Source: Acutalibacteraceae bacterium (GTDB lineage: Bacteria > Bacillota > Clostridia > Oscillospirales > Acutalibacteraceae). From it: a stretch of 62,405 nucleotides of DNA. Each line of letters begins with the position of its first letter. Positions within the stretch are counted from its first letter, which is position 1. The translations under genes and the position numbers were made by a program. Where the stretch lies: the NCBI GenBank assembly GCA_045631165.1, contig JAZQUF010000182.1, forward strand, positions 1-62,405, written 5' to 3'. Positions 2,633 through 8,541 of the stretch are shown piece by piece. The notes under the pieces are model-generated. The model was not told the origin of the DNA. It worked only from the letters and a program-made list of their open reading frames with translations, and ran no database searches.

Positions 2633-4162
2633 ATGAAAAAGATATTATCTGTTATTTTAGCTTTAGCTGTGCTTTTAAGTATGTTTGTCATTGTAGCCTT
2701 TGCTGAAAGCTATAACAGACCGTTTTACAGCGGTGCTGTTGACTCGAAGACATTTCGTATACCTGCTATTTATACTCTTGATGACGGCTCGGTTATTGCC
2801 GTTGCGGATAAGCGTTATGATGAGGGCCTTGATTCGCCTGCAAATATTGACATTGTTTATGCGATTTCGCAGAACGGTTATACAGATTGGAAGTATGGTA
2901 TGCTTAATCACTTTGAAGATTATGCTGATGGTGCCACCAGTACAAAAAGCGCTTCTTTTATTGATTCGGCAGTTGTTCAGGCAGGAAGCGGAAGAGTTTT
3001 TGTTATATCAGATGCATTTCCGTCAGGTGGAGGCTCTGATTATTCAAAGAAGGGCTCAGGCTTTGCTGAAATCGACGGTGTAAAACATATGCTTCTCACA
3101 TCCGGAAACGCTACGGACAAGCTCAGCAAGTTTGAATACTATATAGGTGAGTTCAATGACGGCTTTGCCGATGTGTTTACTGTGAATGGATCTGAAACGA
3201 CAGAATACAGTGTGGATGAGGAATTTTATCTTTATAAGAATGGTGAGCCTTTATATATTGCTCAGAAGAGTAGTGAGGGCATAAGTGTTCATCAGAATGT
3301 ATATTACAGTGATTCGGAGCTTTGCTGCTTGCGCACATCATATCTCTGGCTCAGATGCAGTGATGATAACGGCAAGACCTGGAGTGCACCTATAAATCTA
3401 AACGCCTTTGTAAAGGCAGAAGATGAGACGTTTCTTGGTATAGGTCCGGGCAGAGGCTTTGTTACAAATGTTGACGGCAGGGAGAGAGTGATCTTCTGTG
3501 TGTATACCAAGAAGGGTGCAAAATTAAGCGTAAGTACAATTTATTCTGATGACAATGGCGCAGTATGGCACAGAGGTGAAGCAACAAGCTTAAAGACCGG
3601 TATTGGCAGAACAAGCGAGGCTCAGATTGTTGAGCTCAATGACGGCGTGCTCAGAATGTTCAGCAGAAACGACTCTAACTATATTGCTTATGCCGACAGC
3701 ACTGACGGAGGTATATCCTGGAGCAAATTCTCAGCAGACACAGATCTTATCGCCAAGGCCAGTTGTATGAGCACCTTCATCAATACAAGCAGAATTATTG
3801 ACGGAAAAAAGGTTATTCTGGCTTCATATCCGTCCAACTTCTTAGACAGGGCAGACGGAGTAGTGAGGGTTGGACTTGTTAATGATAAAAATGATATTGA
3901 CTGGATTTCTACACACAATGTTACGGATGGTTTCTATGCGTACTCGTGCCTTACTGAGCTTTCAGATGGTAATTTTGCACTGCTTTATGAGGATGAGCCT
4001 TATAATATCAACTACAGGATTCTTTCTCTTGATGATAAAGGCGCCCTGACAGAAATAAACGGACATAATATTTATCCGCCGAGGTCGACTCTGTGGGAGC
4101 GTATAGCAGCCGTGTTCAATTCGGCTTTGACCGAGTTTATGGTAGTGCTCAATATGATATGA
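2633..4162 (+). CDS. nanH: Exo-alpha-sialidase (GH33)
   Basis: RBS GGGAGGA and signal peptide. FRIP motif (KTFRIPAI) and Asp-boxes SDDNGKTWS, SDDNGAVWH, STDGGISWS. Confidence 0.8.
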   Translation: MKKILSVILALAVLLSMFVIVAFAESYNRPFYSGAVDSKTFRIPAIYTLDDGSVIAVADKRYDEGLDSPANIDIVYAISQNGYTDWKYGMLNHFEDYADGATSTKSASFIDSAVVQAGSGRVFVISDAFPSGGGSDYSKKGSGFAEIDGVKHMLLTSGNATDKLSKFEYYIGEFNDGFADVFTVNGSETTEYSVDEEFYLYKNGEPLYIAQKSSEGISVHQNVYYSDSELCCLRTSYLWLRCSDDNGKTWSAPINLNAFVKAEDETFLGIGPGRGFVTNVDGRERVIFCVYTKKGAKLSVSTIYSDDNGAVWHRGEATSLKTGIGRTSEAQIVELNDGVLRMFSRNDSNYIAYADSTDGGISWSKFSADTDLIAKASCMSTFINTSRIIDGKKVILASYPSNFLDRADGVVRVGLVNDKNDIDWISTHNVTDGFYAYSCLTELSDGNFALLYEDEPYNINYRILSLDDKGALTEINGHNIYPPRSTLWERIAAVFNSALTEFMVVLNMI

Positions 4163-4164
4163 TA

Positions 4165-4200
4165 AAAAGAAGAGAGAGCAAAATGCTCTCTCTTGTTTGT
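4165..4200. terminator. Bidirectional hairpin terminator between convergent genes
   Basis: AGAGAGAGC / GCTCTCTCT 9-bp stem, A-run upstream and T-rich tract downstream. Confidence 0.7.
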
Positions 4201-4282: not shown

Positions 4283-5713
4283 TTAAAGATTATTCACTAT
4301 ACCTGTAAAGAGAGGTAAATTACCTTTAGAAATCACAAATACAAAAGGTCTATTGAGTACAAAATCTATTATTTCTTCAGGAGGCATAGGAGAACCTGCC
4401 ATGGGAAATTCAATATAAGAAGCAGCCTTTACGCCTTTTTCGTTGATTTCAACTCTTGCTGACTGATTAACCGCAGAAACATACACAGGTGAATCAGAGG
4501 TGATTGCCGTAAAATCTGAGCGTTCCATATCAAAGACCTTTGTTACGCCCATTCTGCTAAGTCCCTCTTTTAAGTTTGCTGTGGAAGAAATATCAAACTT
4601 CGGTACAGACAGATTGACCTTCATATACTTTTTGTTTTGCCATCCATCTTCACCACTACCCGAAGAAATCATTTCTCCGTAAGCACCGCCACTTAACACA
4701 TCGGCAGTTGTCTTTCCTTCATCGGGAAGAATAAACCACATTGTGCTTCCGTTTTTAAGGCTTAACGCTACTGCACTGTAATCATCATGCCAATAATAAT
4801 ACATTTGATAAAGGCTTTTATTCATATAGGTGACATTGGCATCGCCGTTGAGACCGTGGAAAATATCGTCAGCATTGTTTTTGCTGTTAAACTCATCACT
4901 CCATTTAGCTTGGAAGAAGAGTGTTGAATAGAGGGCAAGAAGGGTTTCGGGAGACAAGTCGATTTTATCGGTGCGGTCTTTTAACATTCCGCCCGTATTT
5001 TTATTGAGCCAATTACCTATTGACTTGTTTGCACTGTCACTTCCAAGATCACTCTTATACACAGAAGCATAATAGTGATATGCAAGGTTATTCATAGTAT
5101 CCTGATTGTAATTAAGTCCGTCTTCAAGCCAAAGAGAATTGGCCAATGTGCATATTTCATTTCCGTCATCCTCATAAACGGATTCCCAGACAGCACTGAC
5201 CTGACTTCTGAGTGTTTCAAGATCACTTACACCGAACAAATCTAAAATTTCCTTGCGGCTGTCACCATCTGTTATTTCGGCAAGCATAGAAAGTCCGATA
5301 TAAGCGTTTATAGGTGACCATAAAGCATTTTCATTGTTCTGTGAAGAGAGGAATTCTGCAGATGCTTCTGTGAAAAAATGTGACAAGGAAACAGCTGCGT
5401 TTTCTCTCGTTGTTCTTCTGTGGTCTGTTTCAGCCTTCCATAGCTCCACATCCGCCATATAGATTTCTCTGTCTTTATAATCATCAAGGTCGGGATGCTC
5501 CATCATACGTGCATCGCCGGGGAGAGCAATGGCGTTTGCTGTAATTATAGGTGTATTGAGGAAAGAGCTGATGCAAATTACAACTGCTAAAACAGCAGCA
5601 ACCGCACCTATCCAATAAGGTCTTTTTCTCATTTTCTTCGGAGCTTTTTCAGCTTCTTTGATGTGTCTATCGTCTATTTTATCCAAAACTTCCAATACGT
5701 GTTTACGCTTCAT
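4283..5713 (-). CDS. Membrane-anchored serpin (short cytoplasmic N-terminus, one TM helix, extracytoplasmic serpin domain)
   Basis: TM segment WIGAVAAVLAVVICISSFL after about 33 charged residues. Serpin core (NALWSPINAYIGLSMLA) and C-terminus EKGVKAASYIEFPMAGSPMPPEE..NRPFVFVI align with the alpha-1-antitrypsin RCL/PFVF region. RBS GGAGGG lies inside the 3' end of the sigma gene. Confidence 0.85.
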   Translation of the reverse strand: MKRKHVLEVLDKIDDRHIKEAEKAPKKMRKRPYWIGAVAAVLAVVICISSFLNTPIITANAIALPGDARMMEHPDLDDYKDREIYMADVELWKAETDHRRTTRENAAVSLSHFFTEASAEFLSSQNNENALWSPINAYIGLSMLAEITDGDSRKEILDLFGVSDLETLRSQVSAVWESVYEDDGNEICTLANSLWLEDGLNYNQDTMNNLAYHYYASVYKSDLGSDSANKSIGNWLNKNTGGMLKDRTDKIDLSPETLLALYSTLFFQAKWSDEFNSKNNADDIFHGLNGDANVTYMNKSLYQMYYYWHDDYSAVALSLKNGSTMWFILPDEGKTTADVLSGGAYGEMISSGSGEDGWQNKKYMKVNLSVPKFDISSTANLKEGLSRMGVTKVFDMERSDFTAITSDSPVYVSAVNQSARVEINEKGVKAASYIEFPMAGSPMPPEEIIDFVLNRPFVFVISKGNLPLFTGIVNNL

Positions 5714-6269
5714 AGTAATAACCCTCCTTAATAAGATGTTCTTTTAATTTTGCTCTGATGCGGTTTAAGCGTACCGAAACAGCACCGCTTTTCATATTAA
5801 CGGCTTTTGCTATATCCTCAACTGAATCTCCATACCAATACCGACGCATAAAAATATATCTGTTCATATCAGTATCCTGTTCCAAAAAGTTATTTATGGA
5901 GTCGGCAATCTCCTGAATAATAACAGCCTGTTCAGGGTTAATATCATTATCGGGCAGACAAGCACCAAGCTCGTCCAAGGATACGTCATAACTGTTGTTT
6001 CGTTTTTCTGCTGAAAGATATTCTAACCGTTTCAGTGCCATATTTCTTCCTGTACGGTATACATAAGGAGCCAAGGGGTCAGGCTCTTTAGGCGGTATAG
6101 CATTCCAAATGGCAAGGTATGTATCGTTTGTTGTTTCTTCTGCATCGTGATGATTACCGAGAATGTTCATTGCGATTTTGTATAAGGTGTTGCCGAAACG
6201 CACCCTCAAGACTTGAATTGCCTCTTCAGCTCTCGCAAAGAAAAGCTTTATTATTTGTTTATCTTCCAT
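5703..6269 (-). CDS. ECF-type sigma-70 family RNA polymerase sigma factor
   Basis: Region 2 (DAEETTNDTYLAIWNAI) and region 4 HTH (SVEDIAKAVNMKSGAVSVRLNRIRAKL). Start chosen at MEDKQII with RBS GAGGAGG 7 nt upstream. Its stop overlaps the serpin start by 11 nt. Confidence 0.85.
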   Translation of the reverse strand: MEDKQIIKLFFARAEEAIQVLRVRFGNTLYKIAMNILGNHHDAEETTNDTYLAIWNAIPPKEPDPLAPYVYRTGRNMALKRLEYLSAEKRNNSYDVSLDELGACLPDNDINPEQAVIIQEIADSINNFLEQDTDMNRYIFMRRYWYGDSVEDIAKAVNMKSGAVSVRLNRIRAKLKEHLIKEGYYYEA

Positions 6270-6427
6270 CTGAAAACCTCCTCTCACTTATATAAACCGA
6301 TTTTATCGGATTCATCTTACATAAAGTTTAACATTATTTTTTTAGGAATACAATATTTATCGTCTTGGCTTTTTGAATCCGTAGAATAAAATTACAGCAG
6401 TCTGTTTGTGCAAAGCACAACATCGTT

Positions 6428-6521: not shown

Positions 6522-6552
6522 AAAAAATCCAAGTCGAAAGACTTGGATTTTT
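6522..6552 (-). terminator. Hairpin terminator abutting the tRNA-Arg 3' fragment (probably the ancestral tRNA terminator)
   Basis: AAAAAATCCAAGTC GAAA GACTTGGATTTTTT: 14-bp stem with GAAA loop, and A/T runs on both sides. Confidence 0.75.
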
Positions 6553-6597
6553 TGGCACCCCCCTGCGGGAATCGAACCCACATCTAATCCTTAGGAG
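6553..6597 (-). repeat. Truncated copy of the 3' 44-45 nt of tRNA-Arg(CCT); att-like direct repeat
   Basis: TGGCACCCCCCTGCGGGAATCGAACCCACATCTAATCCTTAGGAG matches 8467-8510 apart from one extra C. Identity ends exactly at the 5' edge of the anticodon loop. Confidence 0.85.
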
Positions 6598-6927: not shown

Positions 6928-8385
6928 ATGAGAGTTGTAATTATTGGTTGCGGAATCACCGGAATGAGTGCAGGTATAATGTTGCAGAAAGCCGGAATTG
7001 ATACCGTTATTTTTGAAAAGATGAATAATCCCGGAGGGGTTATAGCTATATATAAAAAAGACGGCATACTCATTAATAATGTATTAGAGTTTGTCTTAGG
7101 TACTGCTCAAAACACCTTCGCAAATGACATGTGGCAAAGCTTAGGTCTATTCAAAAAATCACCGGAGATTAAAAATTGTTTCAAAAGATTTTTGTGGGAT
7201 AATAATTCTGTCAGTATTTATAAAGATTTTAATAAAACTGTCAACGAGATGATTTCTCTTAGTCCACAGGATAAAAAAATGATTTTAAAACTGGCGAAAT
7301 CTGTAAAAAAATTCCAAAAACTCGAATTGCCACTGATTACTAAAAAAAGCAGAAACATATTAGTCCGATTGTTTAGCTTGTTTTTACACTGTTTTACGGT
7401 TATTCCCGATGTGTTATACTACGGAACAATAAATTGCAAGAAATACGGCAAAAAAATCAAAGGACGCGAGTTAAGAGAATTTTTTTCCGACGTACTGAAC
7501 AGAGAAAGAACTGTTCTGCAATATATTGCTTTATGGTCGTTTTTTTCGTCCGGTAACTTCAACATACCTGAGAATAATCAACAAGAAATGGTGGAAACAC
7601 TGTATGATAATTATATCAACTCAGGCGGTGAAGTGTTTTTTAACAAATGTCTGACTGAGGTGATGATCGAAAATAAGAATATACGTGAATTGAAATTCAT
7701 TGACGGTACCGAGTGTAATTTTGATTATGTGATTTTTTCCAACGATATTGCTTCTGTTAACAAAGTTATGACCAATTCAAACAAAAAGCTGCCGATATTA
7801 GAAAAAACAATAGCAAAGGAACATGTTACAAGCTCTTGCGTATTGTATTTCAGACTGGATTGTGCAGATACATATAGCATAGACGAAAATGTATCAATAC
7901 CATGCAAACCTTTTAAGGTTGGCAACAGATATTTAAATAATTTTTCTGTTCGCACTCAAAAAAATACAAACACTTACAATTCGGCAATTTCTGTAACTAT
8001 TTATCAAAATGAAAACGATTTCCTGGAATGGAAAGCAATTTATAATGTCAGCAAAGATCTGTATAATAAAGAAAAATACAGAATAGCTCAGGATATTTTG
8101 AATTCTATTGAAGAACAATTTCCTGATATTCGTGGAAAATTACAACTTTGTGATATGGTTACACCATTAACTTATCATCGCTATACCGGTGTGAATTACG
8201 GTGGTTGGATGCCGGAAAGTTGGAATCCTCTTATATATTTACGATTTGGAAGAGGTCATATGCCCGGCATACGAAATGCTTCAATAGCCGGACAAAAAGT
8301 TTTTCCCATAGGAGGTATAACTATCGGCGCTTTTTCCGGTGTTAAATTAGCTGAGAAAATTATAAAAATTGCAAATAAAAATTAA
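6928..8385 (+). CDS. NAD(P)/FAD-dependent oxidoreductase (phytoene-desaturase/amine-oxidase-like)
   Basis: N-terminal Rossmann motif VVIIGCGITGMSAG..EK..PGG. C-terminal GGITIGAFSGVKLAEKI is typical of the CrtI-like family. Low-GC codon usage differs from neighbouring genes. Confidence 0.65.
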   Translation: MRVVIIGCGITGMSAGIMLQKAGIDTVIFEKMNNPGGVIAIYKKDGILINNVLEFVLGTAQNTFANDMWQSLGLFKKSPEIKNCFKRFLWDNNSVSIYKDFNKTVNEMISLSPQDKKMILKLAKSVKKFQKLELPLITKKSRNILVRLFSLFLHCFTVIPDVLYYGTINCKKYGKKIKGRELREFFSDVLNRERTVLQYIALWSFFSSGNFNIPENNQQEMVETLYDNYINSGGEVFFNKCLTEVMIENKNIRELKFIDGTECNFDYVIFSNDIASVNKVMTNSNKKLPILEKTIAKEHVTSSCVLYFRLDCADTYSIDENVSIPCKPFKVGNRYLNNFSVRTQKNTNTYNSAISVTIYQNENDFLEWKAIYNVSKDLYNKEKYRIAQDILNSIEEQFPDIRGKLQLCDMVTPLTYHRYTGVNYGGWMPESWNPLIYLRFGRGHMPGIRNASIAGQKVFPIGGITIGAFSGVKLAEKIIKIANKN

Positions 8386-8466: not shown

Positions 8467-8541
8467 TGGCACCCCCTGCGGGAATCGAACCCACATCTAA
8501 TCCTTAGGAGGGATTTATTCTATCCATTGAACTAAGGAGGC
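8467..8541 (-). tRNA. tRNA-Arg (anticodon CCT)
   Basis: 75-nt cloverleaf folded by hand: acceptor GCCTCCT, anticodon stem AATCC/GGATT, loop CTCCTAA, T-arm GTGGG TTCGATT CCCGC, encoded CCA. Confidence 0.85.

Follow-up and report, generated by a model that had tools for sequence, protein, structure and literature searches.

A candidate protease-sensing circuit in gut Clostridia: an extracytoplasmic function sigma factor gene overlapping the gene for a membrane-anchored serpin

Known sigma factor partners and the sigma-serpin gene pair

In the SigV/RsiV systems of Bacillus subtilis, Clostridioides difficile, and Enterococcus, and in SigP/RsiP of Bacillus thuringiensis, a sigma factor of the extracytoplasmic function (ECF) type is co-transcribed with a single-pass membrane partner that has a short cytoplasmic N terminus. 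The ectodomain of RsiV directly contacts the host enzyme lysozyme, after which RsiV is cleaved by signal peptidase (PMC4183432, PMC5014341, PMC6066255), and RsiP behaves like RsiV, with a beta-lactam-dependent signal and signal peptidase acting at site 1 (PMC8844934). In both proteins, cleavage at an AxA motif just outside the membrane has to await ligand binding and is succeeded by the action of a site-2 protease; each operon is also autoregulated. Here, we describe a gene pair of the same layout from an Acutalibacteraceae bacterium (contig JAZQUF010000182.1, positions 1 to 62,405; this whole stretch of 62,405 nucleotides is called the window below), in which an ECF sigma factor gene overlaps the gene for a membrane-anchored serpin that may act as its anti-sigma factor.

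Two other groups of proteins are relevant to this locus. In SigI/RsgI of Clostridium thermocellum, a conserved N-terminal and transmembrane part is combined with many ectodomains, among them carbohydrate-binding modules and glycoside hydrolases, and the Rsi24C-GH5 protein of the same species is reportedly another modular Clostridial anti-sigma factor. RsgI signaling is described in PMC10328401. Bacterial serpins such as the siropins, miropin, the Bifidobacterium longum serpin, and tengpin have been described as inhibitors only. The serpin operon of Bifidobacterium breve is said to be inducible by host proteases. According to Alvarez-Martin 2012, as cited in PMC8201313, it is autoregulated via a two-component system.

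The sequence-only reading of this DNA had placed the two genes at the coordinates given in Table 1, and these were confirmed, together with the 11-nt overlap (ATGAAGCGTAA) between the 3' end of the sigma gene and the 5' end of the serpin gene. The ribosome-binding site (RBS) of the serpin gene, AAGGAGG, lies within the 3' end of the sigma gene, and that of the sigma gene itself is GAGAGGAGG at 6277-6285. A longer sigma reading frame from GTG 6287 was rejected; because this codon falls within the sigma RBS and directly after the predicted -10 element, we take ATG 6269 as the start. The sigma protein matches Sigma70_r2 and r4_2 in Pfam and TIGR02937 (sigma70-ECF) in NCBIfam, the latter at 77 bits with a cut-off of 42.9. 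It carries no regulatory extension of its own by Pfam and NCBIfam, and by NCBIfam it is not a SigV equivalog.

Table 1. Coordinates of the sigma-serpin gene pair and its associated features in the window
Feature	Coordinates	Strand	Remarks
ECF (group 4) sigma gene, 188 aa	5703-6269	minus	ATG 6269, TAA 5703-5705; sigma-2 and sigma-4 regions only
Membrane-anchored serpin gene, 476 aa, putative anti-sigma factor	4283-5713	minus	ATG 5713, TAA 4283-4285
N-terminal module, residues 1-24, MKRKHVLEVLDKIDDRHIKEAEKA	5642-5713	minus	two short helices in the model; putative sigma-binding element
Transmembrane helix, residues 34-52, WIGAVAAVLAVVICISSFL	5558-5614	minus	from sequence; model helix 32-52
A59-N60-A61, signal-peptidase-I-like AxA, candidate site-1 cleavage site	5531-5539	minus	Pro at -7
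Juxtamembrane segment and N-terminal extension, residues 62-116	5366-5530	minus	long helix from residue 82 into the serpin core
Serpin domain, residues 117-475	4289-5365	minus	PF00079, E = 5.9e-67
Hinge and reactive-center loop, EKGVKAASYIEFPMAGSPMPPEE, residues 425-447	4373-4441	minus	alignment with known serpins
Candidate ECF-type promoter	6296-6321	minus	-35 TGTAAG, 16-nt spacer, -10 CGGT
Candidate housekeeping (sigma-A-type) promoter	6325-6353	minus	TTGTAT, 17 nt, TGtTAAACT; weak in the window
Terminator-like hairpin upstream of the operon	6522-6553	minus	14-bp stem, then T run
Bidirectional terminator, common to the serpin gene and the convergent BNR/sialidase-like gene	4170-4194	both	11-bp stem, T runs on both strands

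The partner had been read as a charged N terminus of about 33 residues, one transmembrane helix, and a full serpin fold, and the sequence, Pfam, and an AlphaFold2 model all agree with this; the proposed hidden Markov model (HMM) check returned the expected serpin family (Table 1) as well as Sigma70_r2 and r4_2 in the sigma factor. Residues 1-33 hold 12 K/R and 6 D/E and end in KKMRKRPY, after which comes a hydrophobic stretch of 19 residues (W34-L52). Because this N terminus is basic and the segment behind the stretch is acidic, the positive-inside rule predicts an N-in, C-out topology, in line with the earlier proposal. Outside the serpin domain, the protein matched nothing in Pfam or NCBIfam. 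Within it, the PDB sequence matches are led by conserpin (7e-36), alpha-1-antitrypsin (4e-31), and tengpin (1.6e-29), and 168 PDB serpin sequences fall at E < 1e-10.

The AlphaFold2 model was built from an alignment of 139 diverse family members and reached a mean predicted local distance difference test score (pLDDT) of 90.5 and a predicted template modeling score (pTM) of 0.84; an earlier model from a shallow alignment (28 sequences, ≥75% identity) gave a pLDDT of 40.7 and was discarded as unusable. The model comprises helices 3-12 and 15-22 in the N-terminal module (pLDDT about 81), a transmembrane helix, residues 60-63 as a short strand, and a long helix that extends from 82 to 122 (pLDDT > 90) into a complete serpin core, in which loop 437-447 has a pLDDT below 50. 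By alignment, the segment of residues 62-116 is also present in lipoprotein-type serpins. The top 50 Foldseek matches are serpins only, tengpin being first (E = 1e-29), with target-normalized TM-scores of 0.70-0.83.

The position of the reactive-center loop, its alignment with alpha-1-antitrypsin, and the small residues A-A-S at P12-P10 had all been predicted and were borne out; the hinge and loop align with conserpin as well. By canonical counting, the loop reads P17 E425, P16 K, P15 G427, P14 V428, P13 K, P12-P10 A430-A431-S432, P9 Y, then I-E-F-P-M-A-G to P1 S441, followed by P1' P442 and M-P-P-E-E on the P' side; the orthologue consensus is DEKGVKAATYIEIPGAGSAMPPEE. It has the hinge consensus of inhibitory serpins (P17 E, P15 G, a small uncharged P14, and small residues at P12-P9) except for the bulky, atypical Tyr at P9, and by its hinge the anchored serpin is probably of the inhibitory type, as had been suggested. 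Across the 150 closest serpin clusters, which are introduced below, the hinge DE[EK]G[VC]xAA[AS][YF] is conserved; in the wider family, so are DE[EK]G[VC]xAA[AS][YF]T and the P' side xPP[ED][ED]E[IV]DF. P7-P1 is variable and rich in small residues (among 93 parsed loops, the residue at the putative P1 is Ala 40 times, Ser 20 times, and Gly 18 times). Between two genus-level groups, the segment from the hinge to P5' is the most conserved part of the protein at 78% identity, compared with 57% for the core and 35% for the N-terminal module, which argues for a conserved target. A P1 region dominated by small residues would suit an elastase-type target. The Bifidobacterium longum serpin inhibits pancreatic and neutrophil elastases. 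Related gut Firmicute serpins, the siropins, inhibit elastase-type proteases (PMC5127057).

Conservation of the pairing and of its N-terminal module

A survey of sigma-serpin adjacency in relatives had been proposed, and the pairing held at every level that we surveyed. A genome scan with one genome per species returned 36 loci encoding a relative of the serpin, 34 of them with upstream DNA. Their source taxa are uncultured Acutalibacteraceae/Ca. Fimenecus, Faecousia, and other Oscillospiraceae; several records come from ruminant rectal samples, with hosts including roe deer, sheep, and goat, and other records give no host. The sigma gene lies directly upstream of the serpin gene, with an overlap of 11 nt or 4 nt, in 34 of 34 loci, down to 48% sigma/serpin identity. 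A metagenome scan with an alignment of the sigma factor returned 80 loci at 39-58% sigma identity, and a serpin is encoded next in all nine loci with the closest sigmas (≥49%). Since the adjacency is present at every related locus with upstream DNA, it is far beyond chance.

More distant relatives were collected by searching 1.84 billion cluster representatives exhaustively and without a profile, which gave 30,361 serpin matches. Among the 150 serpin clusters nearest to the window protein (35-59% identity), the N-terminal module found here heads at least 106, with HMM scores above every shuffled control, and many more carry a visibly degenerate version of it. The architecture is thus widespread in these clusters rather than special to this genome. 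About 13 of the nearest 150 have an ordinary signal peptide or lipobox, and 5 have a different N terminus, MxRYKKANExIHAPExLK plus a transmembrane helix (P0168, P0256, P0194, P0229, and P0237). Genomic context was looked up for seven distant clusters (L118-L124), and in all six of the anchored ones (35-50% identity; L118, L119, and L121-L124) a sigma gene is directly upstream. Those with the N-terminal module (L118, L121, L122, and L123) immediately follow an ECF sigma gene of 183-191 aa. The RYKKAN-type serpins (L119, 636-2554; L124, 1537-3455) follow ECF sigmas of 155-157 aa with a 4-nt overlap, and these sigmas share 18-22% identity with the window sigma; judged by sequence, another sigma/anti-sigma family looks to have taken up a serpin independently in the RYKKAN-type pairs. 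The one lipoprotein-type serpin locus used as a control (L120) is without a sigma gene. At that locus (3-2258), the lipoprotein-type serpins form a tandem pair beside a cyclase/formamidase-like gene.

In a neighbor-joining tree (without support values), the serpin-linked sigmas fall into at least two clades of the family plus an unrelated third lineage, the one paired with the RYKKAN-type N terminus. It follows that the coupling of serpins to ECF sigmas has come about repeatedly and has been durable. A protein that appeared to be a fusion of the two partners (P0262, L117 3001-5007, 668 aa, Sigma70_r2 plus Serpin) was rejected as a Rosetta-stone case, since it arises from a frameshift in a sigma gene with read-through to the serpin; its sigma part is out-of-frame garbage past about residue 95, and it is either a pseudogene or an assembly error.

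The N-terminal module reaches well beyond serpins. In the serpin protein, it occupies the first ~22 residues with the motif MKxxxLxxAxxxIDDxxIxEA. The gene downstream overlaps the sigma stop codon in nearly all of about 120 loci. Among the 71 metagenome loci of the non-serpin kind, a 4-nt overlap (ATGA) between the sigma gene and the next gene is almost always seen. The products of these next genes begin with M-(K/N)-x3-h-x2-A-h-G-x-I-D-D-x-(Y/H/L)-I-x-E-A, followed by basic residues, one transmembrane helix, and a variable ectodomain. They form about 29 unrelated clusters, most without a Pfam domain, and every partner has the module at its very N terminus, from residue 1 on and at a constant distance. 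The largest cluster carries RsgI_M (2e-20; the RsgI central domain PF23750) plus PepSY, and others have weak DUF4179 matches (L085 and L052) or a DUF5050 propeller. Because the same module heads these unrelated partners of sister sigmas, the serpin is one ectodomain of a modular, anti-sigma-like family, and the parsimonious reading from this context is that the module is the sigma-binding (anti-sigma) end. The conserved coupled operon and the RsgI_M and DUF4179 domains in some partners uphold the sigma/anti-sigma layout that was first read from the window. No relative of the module was found in Pfam, and a profile of 36 N-terminal modules gave no significant match in the PDB (best E = 0.77, to unrelated proteins).

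The RsgI_M plus PepSY partner is the commonest non-serpin type, seen in L084 (2144-3460) and 16 similar loci (L082, L086-L089, L091, L093-L095, L097-L099, L102, L111, L114, and L116), many of them from human-gut metagenomes. By its domains, this protein is apparently another uncharacterized sensor. In two loci, a second pair made up of a paralogous ECF sigma and a partner with the module follows directly behind the sigma-serpin pair (L005 5700-7081; L121 3571-5395), the partners being 273 aa and 426 aa without a Pfam domain, so sigma/module cassettes can form tandem arrays.

Conservation extends to the control region. The candidate ECF-type promoter TGTAAG-N15/16-CGGT stands at a fixed distance, about 51 nt before the sigma ATG, in 33 loci, including ones at about 50% protein identity, and its spacer sequence varies among them. 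In the 62-kb window, the TGTAAG...CGGT pattern matches once, at the site of the operon itself, compared with 0.26 matches expected. Because this promoter is conserved upstream of the pair and unique in the window, autoregulation is indicated, and the operon is presumed to be autoregulated through it. Sister sigma loci share the architecture, with a TGTAAC/TGTAAG-like -35, an A-rich spacer, a CGTA/CGGT -10, and then TATA(T)AGGTGAAG. This last element lies between the predicted -10 and the RBS across the whole sigma family (about 6281-6295 in the window; also L046, L061, L065, L077, L078, L084, L086, L100, L118, L122, and L123). In some loci it is separate from the RBS, and it could be a start-site region or a leader element. 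The housekeeping-type promoter occurs at the same place in orthologous loci as TTGTAT-N17-TGCTAAAAT (a TGnTAAAAT-type -10); a consensus promoter scan of the window did not report it at 6325-6353. The terminator-like hairpin upstream may shield the operon from upstream transcription.

The neighboring genes are much less constant. Two adjacent BNR-repeat (sialidase-like) genes with N-terminal signal sequences lie at 1125-2594 and 2633-4162 on the plus strand, convergent with the serpin gene, and had been taken to suggest a host-interface locus. That argument was dropped, as a single locus among 45 related ones retains one of the two genes. The cassette is best described as an autonomous two-gene unit with variable neighbors. 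On the other side, the 3' ~44 nt of a tRNA-Arg(CCT) gene (8467-8541, minus) are repeated almost exactly 1.9 kb away at 6553-6597 (minus). This att-like repeat flanks an FAD-dependent oxidoreductase gene (6928-8385) that is absent from the syntenic locus L011, and the sigma-serpin operon begins just outside it. A reading of the region as anti-phage defense was set aside after PADLOC returned no matches.

Possible signaling mechanism and rival explanations

We put the chances at about even that the pair is a self-contained and autoregulated sigma/anti-sigma operon of two genes, in which an inhibitory serpin forms the extracytoplasmic domain of the anti-sigma factor and senses proteases. Under such a mechanism, the two-helix module of residues 1-24 would hold the ECF sigma factor at the membrane, and the outward-facing serpin would trap a serine protease with a preference for small (elastase-like) P1 residues. 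Loop cleavage and the irreversible stressed-to-relaxed change, or else the bulk of the covalent complex, would then expose the juxtamembrane segment to site-1 cleavage; the most plausible enzyme for this is signal peptidase, acting at A59-N-A61|I62 in the way known from RsiV and RsiP. After a site-2 protease had cleared the membrane stub, the freed sigma factor would transcribe from TGTAAG-N16-CGGT and renew the supply of sigma and serpin alike. Overall, this would amount to a consumable sensor in which inhibitor output is matched to protease load. The N terminus of a serpin sits at the pole where the trapped protease ends up after translocation. This geometry agrees with the mechanism, as the complex would end at the membrane-proximal linker of an N-terminally anchored serpin. 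The wider proposal is more tentative and falls somewhat short of even chances: that gut Clostridia have a large, undescribed ECF family with an inhibitory serpin as its sensor, in which covalent protease capture, as an irreversible one-time event, leads to anchor proteolysis and then transcription, and in which the module of ~22 residues represents a minimal anti-sigma domain of a new class that is combined with dozens of ectodomains.

Several points weigh against this mechanism. The cytoplasmic part, at 33 residues, is far shorter than a class I anti-sigma domain, and its module matches no Pfam or PDB family; binding and inhibition of the sigma factor by residues 1-33 are putative. The loop of the window copy has Tyr at P9 and Pro at P1', both unusual in serpins that inhibit efficiently. 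The hinge of the model (427-434, P15-P8) is a beta-strand, with the lowest root-mean-square deviations (rmsd) to cleaved CBG (3.8 Å) and cleaved PAI-1 (3.9 Å), and in the Foldseek ranking by rmsd the loop-cleaved and latent serpins fall below native ones. Because the model resembles loop-inserted states, it is uninformative on the native state, and its relaxed-looking hinge may reflect a bias of the predictor toward the relaxed state. We know of no mechanism that links loop insertion in a serpin to juxtamembrane cleavage, and the search for a regulon with the promoter pattern covered the 62-kb window only. Finally, the AxA past the transmembrane helix could be a constitutive signal-peptide cleavage site, in which case the serpin would simply be secreted.

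This last point leads to an alternative in which the module and transmembrane helix are one long, constitutively cleaved signal peptide, with the sigma factor held until its partner has been exported and the leftover peptide degraded, either by an export logic like that of FlgM or as plain feed-forward. The sequence past the helix, N53-T-P-I-I-T-A59-N-A61 | I62-A-L-P, is indeed a textbook signal-peptidase-I c-region (P55 at -7, A-N-A at -3 to -1) followed by a conserved mature domain, and the site is kept as ANA, AKA, AEA, or VKA across serpin orthologues. Among 18 aligned sequences, the AxA just before I62 occurs only in forms anchored by a transmembrane helix and not in lipoprotein-type relatives, whose mature-protein segments (LAAP, LGNA, and ITAA) align with I62-A-L-P; at this position the mature part of those relatives starts, behind a lipobox. 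Characterized gut serpins have also been treated as secreted inhibitors (PMC5127057, PMC13376542). Export, however, needs no 33-residue n-region with a 22-residue motif common to dozens of partner families, and an anti-sigma factor would be pointless under constitutive release; where an ordinary signal peptide or lipoprotein would have a short n-region or a lipobox Cys, this protein has the long n-region with its conserved motif and no such Cys. In the model, the AxA strand 60-63 is predicted to be docked on the serpin body (pLDDT 80-92), as expected for a protected, conditional site, and RsiV and RsiP demonstrate conditional use of such sites. Because both of those proteins are cut by signal peptidase and are anti-sigma factors, the two functions can coexist. 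We consider constitutive secretion unlikely; signal-peptidase cleavage at A59-N-A61 would instead be a step in release of the sigma factor.

It is similarly improbable, in our estimate, that the anti-sigma factor is real and the serpin is its payload, so that the level of surface inhibitor would be held constant by titrating its own sigma factor in a negative feedback, with the sigma freed by some other cue (envelope stress or another site-1 protease) or by simple turnover. The promoter motif stands only before the operon within the window, so the main output may be the serpin itself, and pairing of the module with very diverse ectodomains suggests that release is of a generic kind. The exceptionally conserved reactive loop and the recruitment of serpins by three separate sigma lineages suggest instead that contact with proteases lies at the heart of the circuit. 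Faster clearance of complexed than of free serpin would turn such a payload into a sensor itself. A target of bacterial origin is a further possibility, and to us a rather remote one: the circuit would monitor proteolysis by the cell itself or its neighbors through an endogenous or competitor serine protease, with subtilisin-, HtrA-, or signal-peptidase-like enzymes as candidates; the loop contains many AxA-like small residues. Genera from different hosts (roe deer, sheep, and goat among them) share an almost unchanged reactive loop, and the P1 region across the family is mainly Ala, Ser, and Gly, but a small P1 fits equally well the pancreatic and neutrophil elastases that related siropins inhibit (PMC5127057), and the conserved cassette contains no protease gene. 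Mere co-transcription, with the N-terminal motif serving apart from the sigma factor as, for example, a targeting or maturation signal, seems very improbable. It draws on a module without similarity to known anti-sigma domains (Pfam and PDB) and on a sigma contact deduced from context; set against it are the near-universal start/stop overlap (ATGA in most of about 70 loci), a module fixed at residue 1 and at one distance in every partner, the RsgI_M or DUF4179 domains of some partners, and a sigma factor without a regulatory extension.

If the protease-sensing mechanism is true, it would explain, in concrete and testable form, how gut commensals detect proteases of the host or of competitors; serpin expression is known to be regulated in Bifidobacterium, but to our knowledge its protease sensor has not been identified. 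It would extend serpins from inhibitors to signaling receptors and would be the first case of receptor signaling by consumption of a suicide substrate. Gut serpins that have been studied as recombinant ectodomains, including those of therapeutic interest in inflammatory bowel disease, may natively be regulatory membrane proteins, and the pair could serve as a compact two-gene protease biosensor for synthetic biology. The module, as the apparent sigma-binding end of diverse Clostridial membrane sensors, most of them with ectodomains of unknown function, would allow many "hypothetical" proteins to be annotated as signaling proteins.

Comparison with described regulators and serpins

The sequence-only reading knew of no described case of a serpin as a sensor domain, and our full-text literature search, whose coverage is incomplete, likewise found no publication on a serpin as an anti-sigma factor or partner of an ECF sigma. 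The ECF re-classification paper has no mention of a serpin, and neither a sigma factor nor a membrane anchor is mentioned in the siropin paper, the review of the gut serpinome, or the paper on serpin phylogeny. The siropins, miropin, the B. longum serpin, and tengpin share the fold and inhibitory hinge of the protein described here, and tengpin also has an N-terminal extension, but no sigma linkage or cytoplasmic module has been reported for them. In Bifidobacterium, a histidine kinase and response regulator act together with a separate secreted or anchored serpin, whereas here the serpin is fused to the putative regulator.

The cytoplasmic part also differs from the described classes of anti-sigma domain. 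Class I domains (ASD; zf-HC2, RskA, FecR, and similar ones) have about 70-90 aa in three or four helices, compared with the 33 residues of the serpin protein. Class II anti-sigma factors of the CnrY/CnrH type have a cytoplasmic segment of about two helices followed by one transmembrane helix. This short two-helix layout is alike here, but a PDB profile search detected no sequence similarity between CnrY and the module.

In its logic, with an anti-sigma factor as receptor for a host enzyme, the sigma-serpin pair appears closest to SigV/RsiV. The ectodomain of RsiV is of the DUF4179 plus DUF3298 type, whereas the serpin protein has no DUF4179 match and carries a covalent suicide inhibitor in its place. 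Compared with RsiV and RsiP, its N-terminal module is also different, and an irreversible change of conformation would take the place of reversible binding as the trigger. In its modularity, the pair appears closest to SigI/RsgI, where one N-terminal part is likewise combined with many ectodomains; the serpin protein, however, is without RsgI_N and RsgI_M, its sigma factor is a plain ECF sigma and not of the SigI type, and it would sense a protease instead of a polysaccharide. What is known, then, is the ECF sigma factor and single-pass anti-sigma factor controlled by regulated proteolysis, and what appears to be new is a serpin as the putative sensor domain together with an undescribed, putative anti-sigma module.

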